In this document: piece by piece, positions 2,535 to 42,586 of the stretch
How the letters are laid out: each line of letters opens with the position of its first letter
Numbering within the stretch: position 1 is the stretch's first letter
Assembly (NCBI GenBank): GCA_051893965.1
Contig: JBJFHW010000232.1
Location: 1-42,764 of the forward strand
Direction of reading: 5' to 3'
Source: Acutalibacteraceae bacterium
GTDB taxonomy: Bacteria > Bacillota > Clostridia > Oscillospirales > Acutalibacteraceae
Length of the DNA stretch: 42,764 bases
Made by a program: the position numbers and the translations under genes
Notes under the pieces: generated by a model
What the model was told of the DNA's origin: nothing
Databases searched by the model: none
What the model saw: only the letters and a program-made list of their open reading frames with translations

Positions 2535-3938
2535 TTAATTTTCTTCGCTTTCTTCTTTTCCGCTTTTTCTCAGTGCTGTGCGCTGATTTTTCTTGATTCC
2601 TTCGGTGCTCGACGGAACAAACATAATTTTAAGCGTCATAAGAATCAATCTGAAATCTTCGGTCACGGACTGATTTGCAATATACATCAGATCCATCTGA
2701 ACCTTGTCATAAGGCGGTGTGTTATATTTTCCATAGACCTGAGCATAACCGGTCAGACCCGCTTTTGTCTGAAGTCTGAGTGCAAACTCCGGCATGGTTT
2801 CTTCATATTCCTTTGCAATTTCCGGTCTTTCCGGACGCGGACCGACAATCGACATGGAGCCGGAAAGAATGTTGAACATCTGAGGAAGCTCATCAATGCG
2901 GCATTTTCTGATAAATCTGCCGACTCTTGTTATTCTATCGTCTCCGTCTTCGGCAAGCCTTGCAACACCGTCTTTTTCGGCGTCAACTTTCATGCTTCTG
3001 AATTTGATGATTTTGAACTTTTTGCCGTTTAAAGTGAGCCTTGTCTGCTTATAAAAAACCGGACCACCGTCATCAATCTTGATGGCAATTGCCGTCAGAA
3101 GCATAACCGGACTTAAAGCAATAATGGCAACAAGTGAAAAAACAATATCGCTGAAGCGTTTGATAAAAGCATAAATCAGGCTTGTATCGCTTCGTTTGCA
3201 GCGGTAAACAGGAACGTTCATCAGCTGAATGATTCTGCCGCCGCGGATAATCGTGTCTGAAATTTTCGGCTTAACATAGGCAACCTTTCCGGTGGCAATG
3301 CAGTGCTTGACCACTTCGTTTCGGTAATCCGACGGAACACCGCAAAGGAAAACCGCGTCAACGCTTTTCATATAATCATAAAGCTCTTCAAGGGTCGTTT
3401 TTTCGGAATTGACTGTTCTGACAACACGAAAACGCTGCTCAATGCTTCTGATTCCCTTAATGGAAAGATAGGCATTGACATCGCCGAAAACAACGATAGT
3501 CTTTTTCGGAACATGCATTTTGAAATAGATTGAGTTGACAATCAAAACCCAGACTGCGGCAAAAGCCGAAAACACAAGGAACATAATGACAAACGGCCAG
3601 ACCGAAACCAGTTTGTAGCTTAAAAGTGAAAAAATAATATAAGAAAATGCCTGCAAAAATGCAATTGCAATAATCTGGGAAAAAATGAGATCCGAAACAG
3701 GCGATGTGCCCACAAGAAAGCCTCCATATACCTTGACGAAGCTTATATAAATTACAAGAAACAGCACGCCGAGAAAATAGTTACCGTATCTGAAGAACGG
3801 AACCGGAACATAAGGGTTATAATATCTTGTCCAGCAATAATACATCGCGCCCGCAAAAAGGGCGCTTATCAGTATTTTAAAAAAATAAAGTATCAGTTTT
3901 TCTTTCACATATTTTCTTTTAAACATAAAAGTTTCCAT
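2535..3938 (-). CDS. polyprenyl-phosphate glycosyl-1-phosphate transferase (bacterial sugar transferase, WbaP/EpsL type)
   Basis: 467 aa with N-terminal TM helices and a C-terminal Bac_transf-type domain (KFRSM, DELPQMFNILSGSMSIVGPRPERP). AGGGGA RBS. Confidence 0.85.
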   Translation of the reverse strand: METFMFKRKYVKEKLILYFFKILISALFAGAMYYCWTRYYNPYVPVPFFRYGNYFLGVLFLVIYISFVKVYGGFLVGTSPVSDLIFSQIIAIAFLQAFSYIIFSLLSYKLVSVWPFVIMFLVFSAFAAVWVLIVNSIYFKMHVPKKTIVVFGDVNAYLSIKGIRSIEQRFRVVRTVNSEKTTLEELYDYMKSVDAVFLCGVPSDYRNEVVKHCIATGKVAYVKPKISDTIIRGGRIIQLMNVPVYRCKRSDTSLIYAFIKRFSDIVFSLVAIIALSPVMLLTAIAIKIDDGGPVFYKQTRLTLNGKKFKIIKFRSMKVDAEKDGVARLAEDGDDRITRVGRFIRKCRIDELPQMFNILSGSMSIVGPRPERPEIAKEYEETMPEFALRLQTKAGLTGYAQVYGKYNTPPYDKVQMDLMYIANQSVTEDFRLILMTLKIMFVPSSTEGIKKNQRTALRKSGKEESEEN

Positions 3939-4026: not shown

Positions 4027-5343
4027 TTATCTTTCCATCGGAACCATGGCGCTTTCCACTTGTTTTTTCCATTCAAGCACTTCCTGCTCATTATATTCCT
4101 CCGGAATTGCAAGATATGCCTTCTTTGCAGCGTCGCCCTTTGTTAAAGCGGACGCAGTGCGAAGCAGAACAGGAAGATTTCCCATTCCCTTTGTTGCTCT
4201 GCTGATAATGCTTGAAAATGAAATCGGGCCGCCCTTGTCTCTCCCGAAATTCAAATCGTTTTCGGTGATAATCTGTTTATCGAAAAGATAATCGATTCCG
4301 TCAACGGGCAAACTGATCATAACGTTTTTGAGAATATCAATCGAGGCAAACCCCGCACCGAAATGCTTGATATATTTGACATTATAATCCCAAAGCGTTT
4401 TTGCGCTGAAAACATTGTCTATATCGCTCAGAACGGTTGTTGCAAGAATTTTACCGGCGCGAAGAGCGGCGCAGATTCCCGAACCGTTCATCGGAATGGT
4501 CATATAAGCGCTGTCTCCGACTGCGGCATAGCCGTCGCAAACCATAACGGAAAGCGGAGATCTGATGGGAATATTGCAAAGCTGTCCGCCGCGAAGAAGC
4601 TTTCTTCCGATTTGCGGACTGAACTGTCTCATTTTTTCAAGATTCTCTTCAATTTCCGCTTCCGAAAGCGGCTTCATTCTTCCGATCAGAACATCAACAC
4701 AGTCTTCTTCCGTAACAACCCATGAAATTCCCTTTTCGCCGTTCGGAACAAGAAAGACTTCATAATTACATTCCGGCTCATCACCCGGAACCTTATCAAA
4801 ATATGCCCTGTAAGCATAAAGAGAATCGCCGTAGCCGTAGTCACGGTCAACATTGCAGCAGACAGGAAGATTTTTTCTGACCGGCGAATCAATTCCGGCG
4901 GCGTCGATTACCAGATCACCCAACACCGGACCGTCAACCGTATCAATTCCGACAACCCTGAGCCCCTCCATAACCGGACCGAGAATGACCGTGTTGAAAA
5001 TGAATTTTACTCCTCTTTCCTGAGCAAAATCAATTAAATCATCATAAATTTTCTTTCTTTCAATTTTTGCCGAACCGTTTCCGTTTGCAGGAACCTTTAG
5101 CGGCGCAGACAAAGCCGGATTATAAAAAAGCATGTCGCCGTTTCTTTCAAAAGTTCCCTCTTCGGGAACCGGCAGACCGACCTGTGAGAAGGCATGAAGG
5201 TCAACCGCATCAAGCCAGTCGTAGCCCAATTCGTCTCTCACTTTCTTTTCATAAACCGTCACGTCATATCCTTTTTCGGCAAGCAAAGCACCGGCAACGA
5301 TTCCGCCGTGTCCGGCACCCGCAACAATAATCTTCTTACTCAT
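4027..5343 (-). CDS. NAD(P)/FAD-dependent oxidoreductase (geranylgeranyl-reductase-like fold)
   Basis: 438 aa with an N-terminal dinucleotide-binding motif KIIVAGAGHGGIVAG...YEKK. AAGGGGA RBS. Substrate unknown. Confidence 0.75.
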   Translation of the reverse strand: MSKKIIVAGAGHGGIVAGALLAEKGYDVTVYEKKVRDELGYDWLDAVDLHAFSQVGLPVPEEGTFERNGDMLFYNPALSAPLKVPANGNGSAKIERKKIYDDLIDFAQERGVKFIFNTVILGPVMEGLRVVGIDTVDGPVLGDLVIDAAGIDSPVRKNLPVCCNVDRDYGYGDSLYAYRAYFDKVPGDEPECNYEVFLVPNGEKGISWVVTEEDCVDVLIGRMKPLSEAEIEENLEKMRQFSPQIGRKLLRGGQLCNIPIRSPLSVMVCDGYAAVGDSAYMTIPMNGSGICAALRAGKILATTVLSDIDNVFSAKTLWDYNVKYIKHFGAGFASIDILKNVMISLPVDGIDYLFDKQIITENDLNFGRDKGGPISFSSIISRATKGMGNLPVLLRTASALTKGDAAKKAYLAIPEEYNEQEVLEWKKQVESAMVPMER

Positions 5344-6176: not shown

Positions 6177-7571
6177 TTATGCCTCATTTTCAGAGCCGGT
6201 TGACTCAGCTTCGTCTTTCGGCCCGACCTTTAAAATAACCGTCTTATAAACATGAAGATAAGAAACCAAACTTACAAGCAGTGAAGCAACCTCCGCAATC
6301 GGGAAAGAAAGCCAGACCTTGTTGACATCACCTGTTTTTGAAAGCAGATAAGCTACCGGAATGAGCACAACAAGCTGTCTTGTGAAAGAAACAAGCATCG
6401 AATAATAGCTTTTGCCGATCGCCTGAAAAACCGAGCCCAAAGAAATGCAGCAGCCGGCAACAACAAAGGAGGTGCTGATTATTTTAAGAGCCGGAACACC
6501 GATTGAAAGCATTTCTTCCTTTGCATCGAAAAGCACAAGCATCTGTTCGGGAATCAGCCACATCAGAACCGTTCCGACTGCCATAATCGAGCAGGCAAGA
6601 ATCAGGCTGAAAGAAACCGTTTTTGTCATGCGGTCTTTTCTTTTGCTGCCGTAGTTATAGGCAATAATCGGAACCGTGCCGTTGTTAAGGCCGAAAACCG
6701 GCATGAAGATGAAACTCTGAAGCTTGAAATATACGCCGAAAACAGTTGCCGCCGTTTCGGAAAACGAAAGCAGAATTTTGTTCATCAGATACGTCATAAC
6801 CGAGCCGATTGCCATCATAATAATGGACGGCACACCGATTTTATAAATTTCGGCAATATATTTTGCGCTGGGTCTGAAGCCTTTGATTTGCAGATGAATT
6901 TCTTTATTGAAGAAATGGTTGAGACAAATTCCGACAATGAAAGCCGCAATCTGACCGGTTACCGTTGCAACCGCCGCCCCTTTTGCTTCAAGGCGCGGGA
7001 ACGGGCCGATGCCGAGAATCAAGAACGGATCAAGAATGATGTTGATAATTGCGCCTGTCAGCTGAGAAGCCATGGAAAGAAGCGTTTTGCCCGTTGACTG
7101 CATCAGCCTTTCGCACATCATCTGACCGAACACGCCGAAAGAAAAGATGCAGGCAATTGAAAGATAATCAACACCGTAATCAAATGTCGGCGAATCGGGA
7201 GAAATCTGCGTTTTAAAAAACAGCCTGACTGCGAAGAATCCGAACAGCATGAAAAATGCCGCCATAACAAGGGCAACAAAAAGACCGTTTGACGCCACCT
7301 GATTGGTTTTTTTATAATCCTTTTCTCCGAGACTTCTTGAAACGAGTGCGTTCACGCCGACGCCCGTTCCTCCCGCGAAAGCGATCATCAGGTTCTGAAC
7401 CGGGAATGACAGCGAAACCGCCGTCAGCGCTTCCTGACTGACCTTTGAAACCCAGATGCTGTCAACAACGTTATAAAGAGCCTGAACAAGCATTGAAAGC
7501 ATCATCGGCAGCGACATTGTAATGATAAGCCGTCCTATGGGCATAACGCCCATTTTGTTTTCCTTTTTCAT
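6177..7571 (-). CDS. MATE family efflux transporter
   Basis: ORF trimmed to the ATG at 7571, which has an AGGAG RBS. About 12 TM segments, with an N-terminal signature of MatE type (MPIGRLIITMSLPMMLSMLVQALYNVVDSIWV). Confidence 0.85.
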   Translation of the reverse strand: MKKENKMGVMPIGRLIITMSLPMMLSMLVQALYNVVDSIWVSKVSQEALTAVSLSFPVQNLMIAFAGGTGVGVNALVSRSLGEKDYKKTNQVASNGLFVALVMAAFFMLFGFFAVRLFFKTQISPDSPTFDYGVDYLSIACIFSFGVFGQMMCERLMQSTGKTLLSMASQLTGAIINIILDPFLILGIGPFPRLEAKGAAVATVTGQIAAFIVGICLNHFFNKEIHLQIKGFRPSAKYIAEIYKIGVPSIIMMAIGSVMTYLMNKILLSFSETAATVFGVYFKLQSFIFMPVFGLNNGTVPIIAYNYGSKRKDRMTKTVSFSLILACSIMAVGTVLMWLIPEQMLVLFDAKEEMLSIGVPALKIISTSFVVAGCCISLGSVFQAIGKSYYSMLVSFTRQLVVLIPVAYLLSKTGDVNKVWLSFPIAEVASLLVSLVSYLHVYKTVILKVGPKDEAESTGSENEA

Positions 7572-13071: not shown

Positions 13072-13108
13072 AAATCACAGCACGAAAACATGCTGTGATT
13101 TTATTTTT
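13072..13108. terminator. bidirectional intrinsic terminator
   Basis: Stem AAATCACAGCA / TGCTGTGATTT flanked by an A-run upstream and a T-run downstream. Shared by convergent genes. Confidence 0.75.
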
Positions 13109-14141
13109 ACCACTTGTTATAAACCTTTTCACAAAAGGCATACATATCTTTGACTTCAAGCACCGTTCCGTCATCAAGCACCGCTTTGCCGCTCCAGAGC
13201 CCGTGCACCTGATGCGTTTTCATTCCGATAAGTCCGAGCGGCATCATATCGTTGAAGTTGTCATAATACGGAACCATTGTCATATCAAATTTTCCGTTTT
13301 CATCAATGAAGTGCCACGGTTTCATCCAGCTTTCGCCGATTTCTGGGTCTTTTTCCAGCCTGACCGTGCCAAGCTTATGGCAAACACCGTCATAAAAAAT
13401 TGCCGTTTCGGTTGCGTTGCTTTCATCGCCGAAGCCCCATGTCAGCTCAAAGCCGAAAAGCTTGCCGTTAAGAAAAGTACTTCCGTTTGCCCAATACCAC
13501 ATATTGCTGTGCGGCCATACGCCCCTGCCCCAGTCAAGAACAGTAAAGGTCTTTTCGTTTGAAAACTCAATTTTCCTGTCGCCGACCGTTACGGTTCCTT
13601 TTGTGGGCATACAGTTAATTTTCTGCGTATAGAAAAATCTGCCTTTTTGCTCAAACGGTGTTGCAATTGTCAGACTTTCATGACGAAGCTGTTTTTCCAT
13701 TGTCAGATCAATGATAAACGGCTTGCCTTTGGCTTTACCCTCAAAATATAAATGCCTTGAATAAACGCCGACATCGAAAACCGCTTTTCTCCCACCTTTT
13801 GCATATTCAAAATGAGACGGCCGGTCTGCATTTTGATCAAGCGGATTTTTATTCGGTGTGATCAGTTCAAGCGCCATATCCGAAACAAATTCGCCTGTTT
13901 TGAGGTTACGGATTTCCGCGGTGAGCGCCGAAGCAATTGAAATGTTAAAAAAGTTGAGTTGAACCATATATTCGCCGTCAGAGGTCTGATAAAAATCCCA
14001 TTCTTTCAGGCGCCATTTGGATGCGCTGATGTTCTCTTTGTTATAAACAAAAAGGTTGTTTTTGCAATAGCCGGGATTGAAAAGCTGACCGTTATCGGCA
14101 AGCAGCGGTGTTTCATAAGTGATCTGGTTTTGTTTGCTCAT
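13107..14141 (-). CDS. DUF2804 domain-containing protein
   Basis: 344 aa, soluble. Overall pattern (WRLKEWDFYQ, WGRGVWP, WYWANGS, FGFELTWGFGD) recalled as DUF2804 from memory. Not verified by search. Confidence 0.65.
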   Translation of the reverse strand: MSKQNQITYETPLLADNGQLFNPGYCKNNLFVYNKENISASKWRLKEWDFYQTSDGEYMVQLNFFNISIASALTAEIRNLKTGEFVSDMALELITPNKNPLDQNADRPSHFEYAKGGRKAVFDVGVYSRHLYFEGKAKGKPFIIDLTMEKQLRHESLTIATPFEQKGRFFYTQKINCMPTKGTVTVGDRKIEFSNEKTFTVLDWGRGVWPHSNMWYWANGSTFLNGKLFGFELTWGFGDESNATETAIFYDGVCHKLGTVRLEKDPEIGESWMKPWHFIDENGKFDMTMVPYYDNFNDMMPLGLIGMKTHQVHGLWSGKAVLDDGTVLEVKDMYAFCEKVYNKW

Positions 14142-18583: not shown

Positions 18584-18778
18584 AACAATACTATGTGGAA
18601 ACAGATGTGCATTATATATAAAAGCAGAATAAGAACAGGTTATTTGAGGTGGACAATTTCGTAGCGACCACACGCCGATGGTATGACAGGGGAAACCCGA
18701 GAGATGCAGGAGAGTGCTACGCCTGCCAAATAACCGCTTATTTATAAAGCCGCCTTGAAAACAGGCGGCTTTTTCTTT
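18584..18778 (+). ncRNA. candidate small structured RNA (unassigned family), promoter-to-terminator unit of about 195 nt
   Basis: - It is bounded by the consensus promoter above and by the hairpin AGCCGCCT-tgaaaac-AGGCGGCT plus TTTTCTTT (18748-18778).
- A 9-bp closing stem, GGTTATTTG (18638-18646) / CAAATAACC (18727-18735), encloses an 80-nt GC-richer domain.
- That domain contains a GGG-GAAA-CCC hairpin and CGTAGC/GCTACG and GCAGG/CCTGC pairings. Confidence 0.4.
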
Positions 18779-22580: not shown

Positions 22581-22818
22581 GGAGTGTATGACAGTGTGGA
22601 GTTTGGAGGGTGGAGTGTGGAGTTATTTTAACAGAAAGTTTCTGCTCTAATTCCACAAAGTTCCTGACTGTTAAACTATAAAATGATACCTTTGTATTAT
22701 TCAGTAGCATTTTAATCGTTGGCGTTACCGCTTTGTGCGGATACGGCACGCCGTGTTAAGAATGCACAAATTTTAAAATTGGGTTAACTCCACACTCCAA
22801 ACTCCACACTCCAAACTC
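22581..22818 (+). repeat. interspersed element copy A: heptamer-iterated terminal inverted repeats flanking a 161-nt core
   Basis: The left arm (22592-22624) is CAG(TGTGGAG)(TTTGGAG)(GGTGGAG)(TGTGGAG)TT. The right arm (22786-22818) is its reverse complement, with 28 of 33 positions pairing. The element is homologous to copy B at 38908-39110. Confidence 0.8.
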
Positions 22819-22861
22819 AAAAAAGACGCCGCCTAAAAAGACAGCGCCTTGCTATACGGTT

Positions 22862-35560: not shown

Positions 35561-36244
35561 ATGAATATATTAAAAGTTGAGAGCTTAACGAAAATTTACG
35601 GCAAAGGCGACACCATGGTCAAAGCTTTGAACGGTGTTTCTTTCAGCGTTGACAGAGGAGAATTTGTTGCCATTATCGGTCCGTCCGGTTCAGGCAAATC
35701 CACTCTTCTTCACATTCTCGGCGGTGTTGACACCGCAACTTCCGGAAAGGTTATCATTGACGGCACAGACATTTCCACACTTGATGAAACGGCACTTGCC
35801 ATTTTCCGCCGCAGACAAATCGGTCTGATTTATCAGTTTTATAATCTCATTCCGATTCTTACGGTGGAAGAGAACCTGACGCTTCCGCTTCTTCTTGACG
35901 GCAGAAAGGTTGACAAACGGCAAATTGCAGACCTTATCAAAAGGCTCGGTCTTGAAAACAGACTGACACATCTTCCCAATGAGCTTTCCGGCGGTCAGCA
36001 GCAGCGAGTTTCCATCGGCAGAGCGCTTGTGAACAATCCCGCGCTTCTTCTTGCAGACGAGCCGACAGGTAACCTCGACAGTGAAAACAGCCGGGAAATT
36101 GTTTCCCTGCTTCGCAAATTCAACAAAGAAAACGGTCAGACCGTTATCATCATCACGCATGATGAAAAAATTGCTCTTTGCGCCGACAGAGTCATTTCCA
36201 TTGAAGACGGCGTAATCACATCAGACGAGGTGAAACAGCCGTGA
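35561..36244 (+). CDS. ABC transporter ATP-binding protein (MacB/FtsE-like)
   Basis: ORF trimmed to the ATG at 35561, which has an AAAGGAG RBS. Walker A GPSGSGKST, signature LSGGQQQRVSIGRA, Walker B LLLADEPTGNLD. Confidence 0.92.
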   Translation: MNILKVESLTKIYGKGDTMVKALNGVSFSVDRGEFVAIIGPSGSGKSTLLHILGGVDTATSGKVIIDGTDISTLDETALAIFRRRQIGLIYQFYNLIPILTVEENLTLPLLLDGRKVDKRQIADLIKRLGLENRLTHLPNELSGGQQQRVSIGRALVNNPALLLADEPTGNLDSENSREIVSLLRKFNKENGQTVIIITHDEKIALCADRVISIEDGVITSDEVKQP

Positions 36245-38781
36245 ATATCGTAAACACTTTAACCCTGCGTCATTTAAAAGAAAACAAAAGCAGAACGGTT
36301 GTCACAACGCTCGGAATCTGCGTCAGCGTTGCCATGATTACAGCGGTTTTTGTTGCGGCGGCCTCGCTTCTGAATCTGCTCGGTGACCTGACTCTTTTTG
36401 CCGACGGCCGTTATGAAGCAAAAATTAACAGCGTTAGCTATGAGCAATATGAAAAGCTCAAATCAGATGTCCGGATTTCAAATGTCGGCACAAGCGCCGA
36501 GGGCGTTTCGTTTCTTCTTGATGAAAGACAGAGCGACAGAAACGGCACGGGAGACATTTTAAAAGGCAACGCAATGTTTTTCGACCAATGCGTCACCTGC
36601 AAATATGACGGTGTTCTTCCGCAAAAGGAAAACGAAATTGCCGTTGAAAAGCAGCTGATTGAAAAAAACAAGCTTGACTGGAAAGTCGGCGACACAGTTG
36701 AAATTCCGACAGGAATCAGAACGCTTAAAGAAAACGGCGGAGAATGTATTGTTGCCGGTATGTATTGTTCCGGCGAAGAATTTAAAACGCAGGAAACAAA
36801 GGAATATAAAATCACCGCCATTTTAAATTCAAACAATCCGACTTGTTATTCCGGCATTCTGTGCTTTATGAGCGAAGCAGAAAAAAAGGCTGCGCCGTTT
36901 ACTGCCACAATCGAGCTTTCAAAGCTGAATTACCAATCGCTTGATGTCACAAAAGAAATTCTTTCGGACTACGGCTTTGAAGACTATTATATTAACTCAG
37001 ATTATCTTGAAACCTTCCTTGCCGCCGATGAAGACGGTTTTCTTATGAGCGCCGTCATTCCGGCTGCATCAATCGTCCTTGTGCTTATCATCATTGCAAG
37101 CGTTGCCCTGATCTATAACGCTTTTGCCATGTCGCTTTCCGAGCGTGTGCGTTACCTCGGTATGCTCGCTTCCGTGGGCGCAACAAAAAAGCAAAAAAGA
37201 AAATCCATCTATTACGAGGGTTTCATTCTCGGCGCAATCGGAATTCCCGTCGGAATTCTTGCCGGCATTGTCGGAATCGGCATTACGCTTCGCGTTGTCG
37301 GGAACAAAATCATTTCCACCGGAATGATTATGGGAATTTCCGACTCAGATATAAGAATGAAAACCGTTGTTTCACTTCCCGTCATTTTGCTCATTGTCCT
37401 TTTCAGCATCATAACGATTTTCATTTCCTCTTTTATTCCCGCCAAAAAAGCTTCAAAAATCACGCCGATTGACGCAATCAGACAAAACAGCGAAATCAAG
37501 GTTAAAGCAAAAAATCTGAAAGCACCGAAAATCGTCCGCAAAATCTTCGGCTATGAGGGTGAGCTTGCCTACAAGAACATCAAGCGAAACGGCAAAAAAT
37601 CAAGGGTGATCATCGCTTCCATTGCCCTTTCGGTCATTTTGTTCTTCTCGTGCAATTATTTCTGCCAGATTTTCATGCAGGCAAACTCCTATCAGCAGGA
37701 AATTCCTTATCAGGTTGAAGTTTCCGCTGATTATGCGCAGAAAGACTTGTTAAAGCGTGAAATTTCACAGCTGAAAGATGTCAAAGATGTTTACCCGACG
37801 AACTATTCGCTTTATATTTACGGAACCGGGGACAAAAATCTTGACCACAGTCTTGCAGCCGAAAACAACTGCACCACAGCCTATAAAAAGCTTTTCACCG
37901 AGCCGACTTATTTTTATATCAACTATATTGAAGATGATGTTTTCAATGAAATATGCAAAAAGAATTCCATTGATTTTAACAAATGCTATGAAAAAGGTGT
38001 TCTCAAGGGCTTACTGCTTAACAACATCAGCCACAAACAAAACAGCGCTAAGGTTTTCAGCGAAAATATGCTCGGTCAAAAAATTGATTACAACTATGAC
38101 GACTATCATTACTCGGTTGAGCTTACGGATTTTATTGATTATGACAAAAACAATTTTGTTTTTTCGCTCAATCCGAAAAACAATGTGTCTGTTTATGTAC
38201 CCGAAAGCATGTATGACAAGGACTTCAAAGAATCCGGCTTATACAACTTCGGCGTTGTCACCGACAAGCACGAAAGCGTAACAGAAGAAATTGAAAAACT
38301 TATTGATCAGTATTCGCTCGGCAACACGATGGTAATGGATATTGAAGAAAATTTCCGGACAATTGAAACCTTGATTTTTGTTATGGAAGTCTTTATTTAC
38401 GGTTTCATTGCCCTCATTTCAATGATTACCGTTGCCAACATCATCAACACCATTTCCACCGGCATTATGCTCAGACGAAAAGAATTTGCCATGCTCAAAT
38501 CCGTCGGAACAACGCCGAAAGGCTTCAACAAAATTGTGATGCTTGAAAGCGCATTTTATGCAATGAAAGCTTTGGTTTTCGCCATTCCGCTGAGCCTTCT
38601 GTTTGAATTTTTGATTAACAAGATGATTGGTGAAGCACAAATTCCGTTTGTGATAAACATTCCGCTTTATCTTGCAGTAATTGCCGTTGTGTTTGTCATC
38701 ATCGGATTTACAATGCTTTATTCCGTCAGAAAGCTCAAAGACGATTCCATTGTTGAAACGCTGAAAAAAGAGATCAACTGA
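36241..38781 (+). CDS. ABC transporter permease with two FtsX-like domains
   Basis: 846 aa. The GTG start overlaps the ATPase stop. N-terminal TM plus a large extracytoplasmic region, with two 4-TM FtsX modules. Confidence 0.85.
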   Translation: MNIVNTLTLRHLKENKSRTVVTTLGICVSVAMITAVFVAAASLLNLLGDLTLFADGRYEAKINSVSYEQYEKLKSDVRISNVGTSAEGVSFLLDERQSDRNGTGDILKGNAMFFDQCVTCKYDGVLPQKENEIAVEKQLIEKNKLDWKVGDTVEIPTGIRTLKENGGECIVAGMYCSGEEFKTQETKEYKITAILNSNNPTCYSGILCFMSEAEKKAAPFTATIELSKLNYQSLDVTKEILSDYGFEDYYINSDYLETFLAADEDGFLMSAVIPAASIVLVLIIIASVALIYNAFAMSLSERVRYLGMLASVGATKKQKRKSIYYEGFILGAIGIPVGILAGIVGIGITLRVVGNKIISTGMIMGISDSDIRMKTVVSLPVILLIVLFSIITIFISSFIPAKKASKITPIDAIRQNSEIKVKAKNLKAPKIVRKIFGYEGELAYKNIKRNGKKSRVIIASIALSVILFFSCNYFCQIFMQANSYQQEIPYQVEVSADYAQKDLLKREISQLKDVKDVYPTNYSLYIYGTGDKNLDHSLAAENNCTTAYKKLFTEPTYFYINYIEDDVFNEICKKNSIDFNKCYEKGVLKGLLLNNISHKQNSAKVFSENMLGQKIDYNYDDYHYSVELTDFIDYDKNNFVFSLNPKNNVSVYVPESMYDKDFKESGLYNFGVVTDKHESVTEEIEKLIDQYSLGNTMVMDIEENFRTIETLIFVMEVFIYGFIALISMITVANIINTISTGIMLRRKEFAMLKSVGTTPKGFNKIVMLESAFYAMKALVFAIPLSLLFEFLINKMIGEAQIPFVINIPLYLAVIAVVFVIIGFTMLYSVRKLKDDSIVETLKKEIN

Positions 38782-38825: not shown

Positions 38826-38876
38826 AGCTCCCGCAGTCTTTTCACACCGAGACTGCGGGAGGCTTTTTTATTTTTA
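38826..38876 (+). terminator. intrinsic terminator
   Basis: 11-bp perfect stem CTCCCGCAGTC / GACTGCGGGAG followed by GCTTTTTTATTTTT. Confidence 0.8.
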
Positions 38877-38907
38877 AATCTGCGTACTTTTCAGCGTGAA
38901 ACCTTAT

Positions 38908-39110
38908 CAGTGTGGAGTTTGGAGTTTGGAGTGTGGAGTTGTTTCAACTTGAAAATTTCTGCTGAAAATTTTAACAAAGTTTCTGATTATTAATTTAAAG
39001 AACAGATTATGGTAGGGACACGGCACGCCATGTTCCTACTGCACAAACTTTAATGAGGTTAACTCCACACTCCACACTCCAAACTCCACACTCATATACG
39101 CTCCACACTG
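38908..39110 (+). repeat. interspersed element copy B: heptamer-iterated terminal inverted repeats flanking a 120-nt core
   Basis: The left arm (38908-38940) is CAG(TGTGGAG)(TTTGGAG)(TTTGGAG)(TGTGGAG)TT. The inner right arm (39061-39093) is its complement at 31 of 33 positions. An outer CTCCACACTG (39101-39110) mirrors the left terminus. Core blocks are shared with copy A. Confidence 0.8.
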
Positions 39111-39141
39111 AATATACGCTTCTCGCCAAATAGCTTTTTAT

Positions 39142-40203
39142 TTAAAACCTAAGGCTCTTATCCTCACCAATGCCGCACATGCCGTCAAGAATATATTTGT
39201 TGCCGTCCGGGTCGCAGACATAGCCGCTCAGTTCGCCGAAAGTTATGTGATAGTTGATGTCAATAACGCCTGCCGGAACGCGCATGATGAAGCGGTCGCC
39301 GATGTCGAAAATAATATCCGTCATGCCATAGACATCTCTGATGCGCCATTTGTTATATTCCGGGTGCTCAAAACGAACAGGAGTAAGCAAAGTTGTTTTG
39401 CCCTCAAACCAGATCAGGTTTTCGTTAAAATCATTCTGGTTGACCGACTGATTTCTTGTCAGGTTAAAGCCAAAAAACTGCTTTTCTGAGCCGACCGTGT
39501 TTTTGCCCATGGTCGTTACCCAGTCATAATGTGCCTTATACGGATAATAGCCGCGGTGGTCGTCAATGATTCCCGTGCTGTCCTCGTCAGCTTCATATCT
39601 TACGCCGTTGACTTCTATGTAGCCTGTTGCTTTGAACAGATCCTTTTGCGAATAAAGCGGTCGATTGTCGCCGAACGGAATGGAAACAATGCTCGGAAGC
39701 GAAACTCTTTCAAGCGAAATGTCATAGCTGATTTTTCCTTTTTCCTTGTCGGACGCACTGCCGGATACAAACGCCTGACCGTTTTCAAAATGGTTGACAA
39801 CCTTGAGCTTCACTTTTTTACCCAAAGATTCGGTTACATCACCGTTTAAAAGCGTGTCGGAAATAACGGCGCATTTTTTGGAAAACATATCCTGCCAGAA
39901 AGTGACTTTTTTCTTTTTCTTGTCATAAAGCACGGTAAGACCCGTTCCGAAAATGCCCATGTCGCAAACGGCTGTGAGCAAAATTACATCTTTGAGATTG
40001 ATTTCAACAGCCTCCCAGAGCGTAAGCTTCACCTTGTTGAGCGCATTCGGATAAGGCGTCGGGCGGTTTACTTTCAAAAAATCCATGCGCGGAAATTCTT
40101 TTTCAAAGGTTCCGAAATAAGCGTTTCCGTTTGAATCCACAACATTATCGGGTGTCGCAATTGCTTTTCTTTTTTCGGAAAGTACGTCATAAAATTTTTC
40201 CAT
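39142..40203 (-). CDS. DUF2804 domain-containing protein (second, divergent paralog)
   Basis: ORF trimmed to the ATG at 40203, which has an AAGGAG RBS. 353 aa. Motifs DDHRGYYPYKAHYDW and FGFNLTRNQ recalled as DUF2804-type. Not verified by search. Confidence 0.6.
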   Translation of the reverse strand: MEKFYDVLSEKRKAIATPDNVVDSNGNAYFGTFEKEFPRMDFLKVNRPTPYPNALNKVKLTLWEAVEINLKDVILLTAVCDMGIFGTGLTVLYDKKKKKVTFWQDMFSKKCAVISDTLLNGDVTESLGKKVKLKVVNHFENGQAFVSGSASDKEKGKISYDISLERVSLPSIVSIPFGDNRPLYSQKDLFKATGYIEVNGVRYEADEDSTGIIDDHRGYYPYKAHYDWVTTMGKNTVGSEKQFFGFNLTRNQSVNQNDFNENLIWFEGKTTLLTPVRFEHPEYNKWRIRDVYGMTDIIFDIGDRFIMRVPAGVIDINYHITFGELSGYVCDPDGNKYILDGMCGIGEDKSLRF

Positions 40204-42417: not shown

Positions 42418-42586
42418 ACTCAGCGTACATGCTTCTTTAACACGTTAAACCGATAAATCAAATTTTAAGTTGAATTAAATAAAATTATTAAGTTTGATTA
42501 AAGATGTTTTTTTAAGATTTTTAAGAACCGATACGAAATCGGGGTTCATTTTGAGCGTTCAAAAATCAAACGAAAGGAATTGAAGT

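Follow-up and report, generated by a model that had tools for sequence, protein, structure and literature searches.

Genomic setting and anatomy of copy B

An intergenic gap between two converging genes contains a palindromic repeat with arms of tandem heptamers, hereafter named copy B, in a 42,764-nt stretch of DNA from an Acutalibacteraceae genome (the whole stretch analysed, named the window; coordinates are those of its forward strand, and L-numbers denote loci fetched from other genomes). To the left lies an operon of an ABC ATPase and an FtsX-type ABC permease, the permease gene of which (36241–38781, + strand) converges on the gap. This operon ends in a canonical intrinsic terminator (38828–38876, + strand; stem at 38828–38861, then a T-run) approximately 30 nt left of copy B. 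To the right is a DUF2804 gene (39142–40203, − strand), with its stop codon 30 nt from the outer right end of the element. The placement of copy B between a terminator and the DUF2804 stop, as proposed in a previous sequence-only reading of the window, was therefore borne out by the stem and T-run on one side and the ORF end at 39142 on the other. The ABC/FtsX terminator is preceded by an A-tract and followed by a T-tract and, by inspection, could end the DUF2804 transcript too, after the transcript has crossed copy B.

The window probably contains two DUF2804 genes, at 13107–14141 and 39142–40203, both on the − strand; Pfam was applied to the latter alone, and the former was assigned via the syntenic 344-aa DUF2804 gene of the sister genome described below (L141 11111–12145). 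Exact-match look-ups of the window DUF2804 protein (two starts) and the ABC ATPase protein returned no record. The sole Rfam family above threshold in the window was the skipping-rope RNA (RF02924) at 18639–18734 on the + strand (45.9 bits, gathering score 36.7), which points to Clostridia. An AT-rich 23-nt tandem repeat of 2.2 copies was also seen near the window end, at 42454–42502.

The left arm of copy B (38908–38940) consists of CAG, the units TGTGGAG TTTGGAG TTTGGAG TGTGGAG and a final TT, and the inner right arm (39061–39093) of AA, the units CTCCACA CTCCACA CTCCAAA CTCCACA and CTC. The two arms can pair at 31 of 33 positions, and with the adjacent TAT/ATA included the repeat finder gave arms of 36 nt, 94% complementary, with a separation of 120 nt. 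Between them is an AT-rich core of 120 nt (38941–39060), in which no ORF or other coding potential was found, with no promoter-like site in or near it. The left-arm heptamers, the 31/33 complementarity and the core length all agreed with the sequence-only reading. The arms consist of heptamers in direct succession, lack C on one strand and contain no internal palindrome, and the GTAG...CTAC of copy B is confined to a core hairpin (39012–39039; GTAGGGACAC-GGCACGCC-ATGTTCCTAC). Within this hairpin lies the 15-mer ACGGCACGCCATGTT (39020–39034), which is also found in the second copy of the window, copy A, with a similar motif in L083. The two ends of the core are partly complementary to each other (GAAAATTTCTGC and TGCACAAACTTT). 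When the 14-mer TGTGGAGTTTGGAG was searched with up to two mismatches, 12 matches were found in the window, where 0.2 would be expected, and every one fell within copies A and B; thus the heptamer arms are not due to chance.

The right arm of copy B is compound. Its outer part (39094–39111) is made up of the spacer ATATACG and CTCCACACTGA (39101–39111), which complements TCAGTGTGGAG (38907–38917) at 11/11 positions. A 9-nt direct repeat, ATATACGCT, occurs at 39094–39102 and again in the flank at 39112–39120, and it had been read as either a target duplication or a slippage scar. The repeat is present; however, it forms the margin of a local tandem repeat of 17/18 nt spanning 39084–39120 (CTCCACACTC-ATATACG followed by CTCCACACTGAATATACG), which argues against a target duplication and fits a slippage scar better. 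Nor were duplications like ATATACGCT consistently found at other copies, among 20 other paired elements.

Folding of the copy B region gave energies of −82.6 kcal/mol for RNA of the + strand, −87.3 kcal/mol for RNA of the − strand and −44.6 kcal/mol for DNA, with z-scores against shuffled sequences of −9.6, −8.4 and −8.8 respectively. No U-tract follows the stem. Searches of Rfam at gathering and permissive thresholds assigned no family to copy A or copy B, and the below-threshold matches were plant and animal microRNA hairpin models only (36.5 bits against a threshold of 211).

Copy A and its comparison with copy B

Copy A (22582–22828) was identified by sequence comparison as a paralogue of copy B in the same orientation. 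From left to right it has an outer GAGTGTATGA, an arm CAG(TGTGGAG TTTGGAG GGTGGAG TGTGGAG)TT, a core of approximately 160 nt and an arm AA(CTCCACA CTCCAAA CTCCACA CTCCAAA)CTC followed by an A-run. Its left end, GGAG-TGTATGA-CAG-TGTGGAG..., has the same compound-arm design as the left end of copy B in the sister genome. Copies A and B are 78% identical across the arms and core with a single 42-nt gap, which sits just upstream of the common ACGGCACGCC(R)TGTT. This alignment supports what had been read from the letters, namely that copy B has the architecture and orientation of copy A and that its core is shorter by approximately 40 nt upstream of the conserved 15-mer. No compensated pairs were found between the two copies (0/45).

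The arms-plus-core unit is duplicated inside one genome, as copies A and B, and because the two have the core and the compound-arm design in common, we conclude that the composite unit was copied. Copies A and B were the only two available with this core. Copy A precedes a hydrolase gene and its promoter-like site, and an intrinsic terminator was predicted next to it (22850–22823, − strand), so that both window copies adjoin a separate canonical terminator. A 15-nt tandem repeat, AAAAAGACRCCGCCT, present twice at 22820–22849, makes up the terminator adjoining copy A. The possibility that the whole interval from A to B is a mobile island was rejected, since its 16.4 kb carries the core genes rimP-nusA-infB-rbfA-truB-ribF.

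Comparison with a sister genome

To compare both sites with a close relative, we used GCA_051880655.1, an Acutalibacteraceae MAG with DNA approximately 92% identical to the window and a DUF2804 protein 98% identical to that of the window. Copy B occupies the same site in this genome, with flanks 91% and 96% identical. Two sister contigs end inside the copy B core, L068 from the right and L143 from the left, and an independent Logan assembly (L144) confirmed the left end of the sister's copy B up to the start of the extra arm. Core orientation is identical in the window, the sister MAG and the Logan assembly.

The right end of the sister's copy B carries the same outer block as the window. Its left arm is 49 nt longer than that of the window and reads CAGTGTGGAG-CGTATAT-GAG(TGTGGAG)3TT-TTTATT-AG(TGTGGAG TTTGGAG TGTGGAG TGTGGAG)TT; its first 27 nt, CAGTGTGGAGCGTATATGAGTGTGGAG, are the exact reverse complement of the right-end 27-mer of the window, CTCCACACTCATATACGCTCCACACTG. 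This mirrored left end shows that the outer segment is part of a compound arm rather than a target duplication, and that the first unit of the 17/18-nt tandem repeat lies inside the palindrome. The idea that the outer terminus is a mere local tandem duplication was overturned by the same finding. The proposal that the outer CTCCACACTG belongs to the element was upheld by this exact mirror and by the same design at the left end of copy A. The window has lost the left counterpart of the outer block via a deletion between TGTGGAG units.

The arms of copy B in the two genomes also differ by G/T flips. Since the flanks show 91% and 96% identity, the arms evolve more rapidly than the sequence around them. 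The comparison shows that copy B was inherited vertically at its site and that its arms were remodelled by unequal recombination or slippage between heptamers, together with the G/T flips.

At the orthologous site, the sister genome lacks copy A. The sister homology halts at window position 22581, the first-base edge of copy A, and on the right it restarts at the terminator of a Zn-ribbon gene. In the intervening stretch the sister carries ABC2-transporter genes together with the end of a gene for a large serine recombinase (L145 5137–5826 and L141 1–2268; the recombinase C-terminal part matches DUF4368 and, faintly, Zn_ribbon_recom), which suggests that the site holds a different integrated mobile element. 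TGTAGG/CCTACA motifs lie close to both junctions of this insertion. Arms serving as attB for the sister's serine-recombinase element were considered and rejected, as arm remnants are absent at both junctions. A clean empty site was not seen, the sister's copy A site being occupied by the other insertion. Relatives at 80–83% identity, found via DUF2804 and the hydrolase, cannot act as empty sites because their synteny is not conserved and the arrays are absent. At the level of sequence, copy A behaves as a discrete presence/absence unit between close relatives. A comparison of the locus in a close relative had been proposed as a check on the element, and against GCA_051880655.1 it gave both the presence/absence of copy A and the arm differences of copy B.

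The wider family of heptamer-armed repeats

We scanned one genome per GTDB species with a query of three and a half CTCCAMA units and obtained at least 118 loci with arrays. Among the matches listed, 34 loci were from rumen or gut Clostridia MAGs or isolates with (TGTGGAG)n...core...(CTCCACA)n elements, their hosts being Ruminococcaceae, Oscillospiraceae, Acutalibacteraceae and one isolate (Caproiciproducens). These 34 loci held 20 inverted pairs and many solo arms among the matches listed; arms in direct repeat also occur. In the Clostridia loci among these matches the same arms enclose differing cores of 21–250 nt. The cores are unrelated between genomes, yet some core families are common to several genomes at unrelated sites; an element of approximately 300 nt, for example, is 84.5% identical in L070 and L096, two different MAGs with unrelated flanks. 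The combination of conserved ends and a variable core noted in the sequence-only reading was thus found both in the A/B alignment and in elements of other MAGs. Its description of a mobile or recombining element likewise accords with the absence of copy A in the sister, the 49-nt arm indel and G/T flips of copy B and the non-orthologous sites elsewhere. Many contigs terminate within arrays, as expected for a high-copy repeat.

Each arm follows the module consensus AG(TKTGGAG)4TT, approximately 32 nt long. Counted with one strict pattern in the Clostridia loci among the matches listed, arrays of two, three, four and five units numbered 17, 8, 34 and 6 respectively, and this peak at four indicates that the arm is a module of approximately four units rather than a free-running simple repeat. 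In the 20 inverted pairs among the matches listed, the K (G/T) positions of facing units agreed in 18/40 cases compared with 54.5% expected if the arms were independent, and in some elements (L032 and L124) the arms are mismatched at every unit. The approximately 83% complementarity of the arms therefore arises because each arm fits the same consensus and not through selection for pairing.

With rough ORF calling in the loci listed, arrays were found in nine of 21 convergent, 17 of 79 tandem and none of 19 divergent gaps, an occupancy near 2:1:0 that tracks the number of gene 3′ ends per gap. Six of 56 arrays in these loci fell within a called ORF, and those ORF calls are taken to be spurious. 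A consistent flanking direct repeat or conserved target was not found at 22 element boundaries; classical DDE transposition is therefore unlikely. Searches for a Y1-transposase/RAYT homologue, by regular expression and by tblastn with approximate IS200/IS608 TnpA queries, gave none in the window or in approximately 1 Mb of 8-kb loci, and no forward and reverse arm pair was seen around a transposase-sized ORF in the fetched 8-kb loci.

Other heptamers form arrays in these genomes (AATGCGT, AAACTTA, AATTACG and others), mostly approximately 4.5 units long, and some of them adjoin GGAG-type arms in mosaic blocks. One array in an Oscillospiraceae MAG (L121 101–349) has approximately 35 copies of AATTACG/AATTGCG, far above the usual 4.5 units. 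In L083, inverted copies at 3613–3838 and 7258–7457, 79% identical, form an approximately 220-nt mosaic of four or five heptamer arrays with a core resembling that of the window; each lies directly upstream of a gene, and the duplicated block takes in the ribosome-binding site. From their translated starts we take these two genes to be cmk and hisF. GC-rich REP-like palindromes with GTAG...CTAC (CCGTAGGGG...CCCTACGG) occur inside or beside heptamer elements in L070 (~930–1030), L096 (~4700–4800), L087 (7360–7440), L095, L108 and L118. A solo arm (three TGTGGAG units) at L013 6414–6450 stops 7 nt before the TTG start codon of what is apparently miaA, its last GGAG occupying the expected position of the ribosome-binding site. 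A full paired element stands upstream of the homologous gene in L088, where the preceding gene differs.

The heptamer unit of the arms also forms arrays in unrelated phyla, frequently simple hairpins or lone arrays. Several in a high-GC actinobacterial (Acidimicrobiia) MAG are apparently intergenic, short-loop, core-less and heptamer-only hairpins of the same design, with TTTGGAG/TTCAGAG facing CTCCAAA/CTCTGAA (L110 1870–1960, 3870–3930 and 5600–5680; L101 830–930; L122 4545–4630). A viral scan gave nine single arrays and no paired elements, and a metagenome scan with GGTTAACTCCAMACTCCAMACTCC gave one match, which was unrelated and high-GC. The same-unit arrays and simple hairpins in unrelated phyla show that part of the heptamer phenomenon is broader than Clostridia, and with arrays of one unit so distributed, the arms could arise from general slippage without a dedicated enzyme.

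Relation to known repeat systems

The family shares much with REP, BIME and REPIN sequences (for REPINs, see PMC3116915; Bertels & Rainey 2011). It is short, non-coding, high-copy and extragenic, occurs as inverted hairpin doublets, singlets and clusters, lies downstream of genes without target duplications, forms mosaics with other motifs (L083 and L087) and breaks assemblies. REPIN-type inverted doublets and decayed singlets in extragenic positions were both found among the loci listed. However, the REP unit is a small palindrome with a conserved GTAG, whereas the arm described here comprises four successive 7-nt units and is not palindromic; no RAYT was found in the 8-kb loci with the approximate queries, and the hosts are Clostridia rather than Proteobacteria.

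In form, the elements resemble MITEs such as Correia/CREE, RUP, ERIC and Nezha, being 100–300 bp long, bounded by terminal inverted repeats, ORF-less and dispersed, with presence/absence between relatives and long hairpins when transcribed. Unlike MITEs, they have no target-site duplication or target motif, their terminal inverted repeat is itself an internal tandem repeat, and their cores are unrelated between genomes; a parent IS with matching ends was not seen in the fetched 8-kb loci. The best-supported reading is thus that copy B resembles a REPIN in behaviour and a MITE in form, yet lacks some defining features of each.

Bacterial heptamer repeats have been treated in the literature for cyanobacteria, Beggiatoaceae and Bacteroidetes, likewise without a settled function (PMC4679880). 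Like the cyanobacterial STRR heptamers, for example TAACTGA (PMC4679880), the arms are tandem intergenic 7-nt units, with many types per genome and a patchy distribution across phyla. They differ from STRRs in being fixed at four units, usually arranged as inverted pairs around a core and copied with it. Copy number in the loci listed does not vary freely, with 34 four-unit arrays compared with eight three-unit and six five-unit arrays. String and keyword searches of the literature found no description of a heptamer-armed repeat, which appears to be previously undescribed.

Interpretation and alternative explanations

We consider copy B to be a member of a dispersed, non-coding, palindromic family of intergenic repeats in an Acutalibacteraceae genome, REPIN/MITE-like and non-autonomous, and would give this reading a probability of approximately 0.55. 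In its anatomy, arm modules of approximately 32 nt stand in inverted orientation around the 120-nt core with its GTAG...CTAC hairpin, and the copy-B sub-family has an extra outer unit (CAGTGTGGAG plus CGTATAT). In the proposed mechanism, each arm would be recognised by sequence and not by pairing, as suggested by the constancy of four units per arm, the conservation of the unit and the absence of any constraint on pairing. A putative trans-acting DNA- or RNA-binding enzyme would then copy or move the unit and so spread the repeat, with copy B itself probably neutral or selfish. Lying in the DUF2804 3′ UTR, copy B would be transcribed and fold into a stem of approximately 33 bp that could serve as an RNase III target or affect mRNA stability, as Correia, ERIC and REP sequences do; this may be a side effect rather than the raison d'être of the element.

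The stem might instead be what is selected, so that the element would be kept for its effect on the transcripts of the flanking genes, as a 3′-UTR or intercistronic hairpin that stabilises the mRNA, provides an RNase III site or terminates transcription without a U-tract. Consistent with such a cis-acting RNA are the confinement of arrays to gaps with a gene 3′ end (2:1:0 in the loci listed, with rough ORF calls), the highly stable fold on both strands and the retention of copy B at its site in the sister, as well as the equal orientation to the upstream gene, by reading of the flanking genes, of the four copies with this core type (A, B and two in L083) and the short-loop hairpins at gene ends in the actinobacterial MAG. 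Compensatory covariation, however, is lacking both at the K positions (18/40 against 54.5% expected) and between copies A and B (0/45), and L032 and L124 have arms mismatched at each unit. The stem also lacks a U-tract while canonical terminators stand separately beside both window copies, copy A is dispensable in the sister genome and the cores are unrelated between genomes. Selection as an RNA is therefore an unlikely explanation. We are similarly doubtful that the repeats are immobile, STRR-like heptamer arrays made in place by replication slippage, with the palindrome and core incidental. Many heptamer types are indeed common in these genomes, arrays of this unit extend across phyla, and a whole-unit indel and unit flips distinguish the copy B arms of the two genomes; heptanucleotides are, according to the part of PMC4679880 that cites Mrazek 2007, the commonest long simple repeats in prokaryotes and are ascribed there to slippage. 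Slippage in place does not readily account for a core and compound-arm design common to A and B, for whole elements recurring at unrelated sites in different MAGs, for a unit number that peaks at four instead of decaying with length, or for a sister homology that ends exactly at the left edge of copy A and restarts at the terminator on its right.

Conservation of the unit, a number fixed at four, the lack of selection for pairing and the existence of solo and direct-repeat arms would all be expected if the arms were arrays of binding sites with 7-nt spacing for a chromosomal, regulatory or RNA-binding protein, the hairpin being irrelevant; some arrays even stop 7 nt before a start codon with the last GGAG as a ribosome-binding site (L013). 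Against this, a candidate protein is lacking, units 7 bp apart do not keep phase with the DNA helix, the contexts are heterogeneous, and the copying of the core along with the arms is left unexplained, so that we regard this reading as distinctly improbable. Gut-bacterial inverton families with common inverted-repeat motifs are known, and inverted repeats of approximately 33 bp around a segment of 120–160 bp recall the 100–200 bp segments bounded by inverted repeats in such systems, in which a site-specific invertase recognising the repeats would flip the segment as an on/off switch. Unlike invertons, the elements lie at gene 3′ ends, copy B being between two converging gene ends, and no promoter-like site is present in or near the core. 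Orientation polymorphism was not seen, the core having the same orientation in the window, both sister assemblies and copies A and B, and the high copy number and solo arms are atypical of invertons. An inverton is the weakest of the rivals and a very improbable one.

Significance of a probable REPIN/MITE-like family

Beyond the REPIN/MITE-like reading of copy B, there is a small chance that AG(TKTGGAG)4TT and the approximately 4.5-unit sister heptamer modules are recognition sites of an undiscovered trans-acting system. Such a system would copy, move or process palindromes in Oscillospirales, with simpler hairpins in other phyla. If true, these repeats would constitute a new class of interspersed element in bacteria, built on a modular 'heptamer grammar' and separate from both REP/RAYT and DDE MITEs.

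The repeats also have practical consequences, as they break MAG assemblies (the two sister contigs ending inside copy B are an instance), and copy A sits at a point of rearrangement, where the sister has a putative mobile-element insertion. Copy B itself is best handled as non-coding repeat DNA in the 3′ region of the DUF2804 gene, and not as a gene or regulator. A defined family would make Oscillospirales genomes from rumen and gut easier to assemble and annotate, supply strain-typing markers and point to whichever enzyme may read four tandem heptamers. Alongside the still unexplained heptamer repeats of cyanobacteria, it would also provide a counterpart from the Firmicutes.
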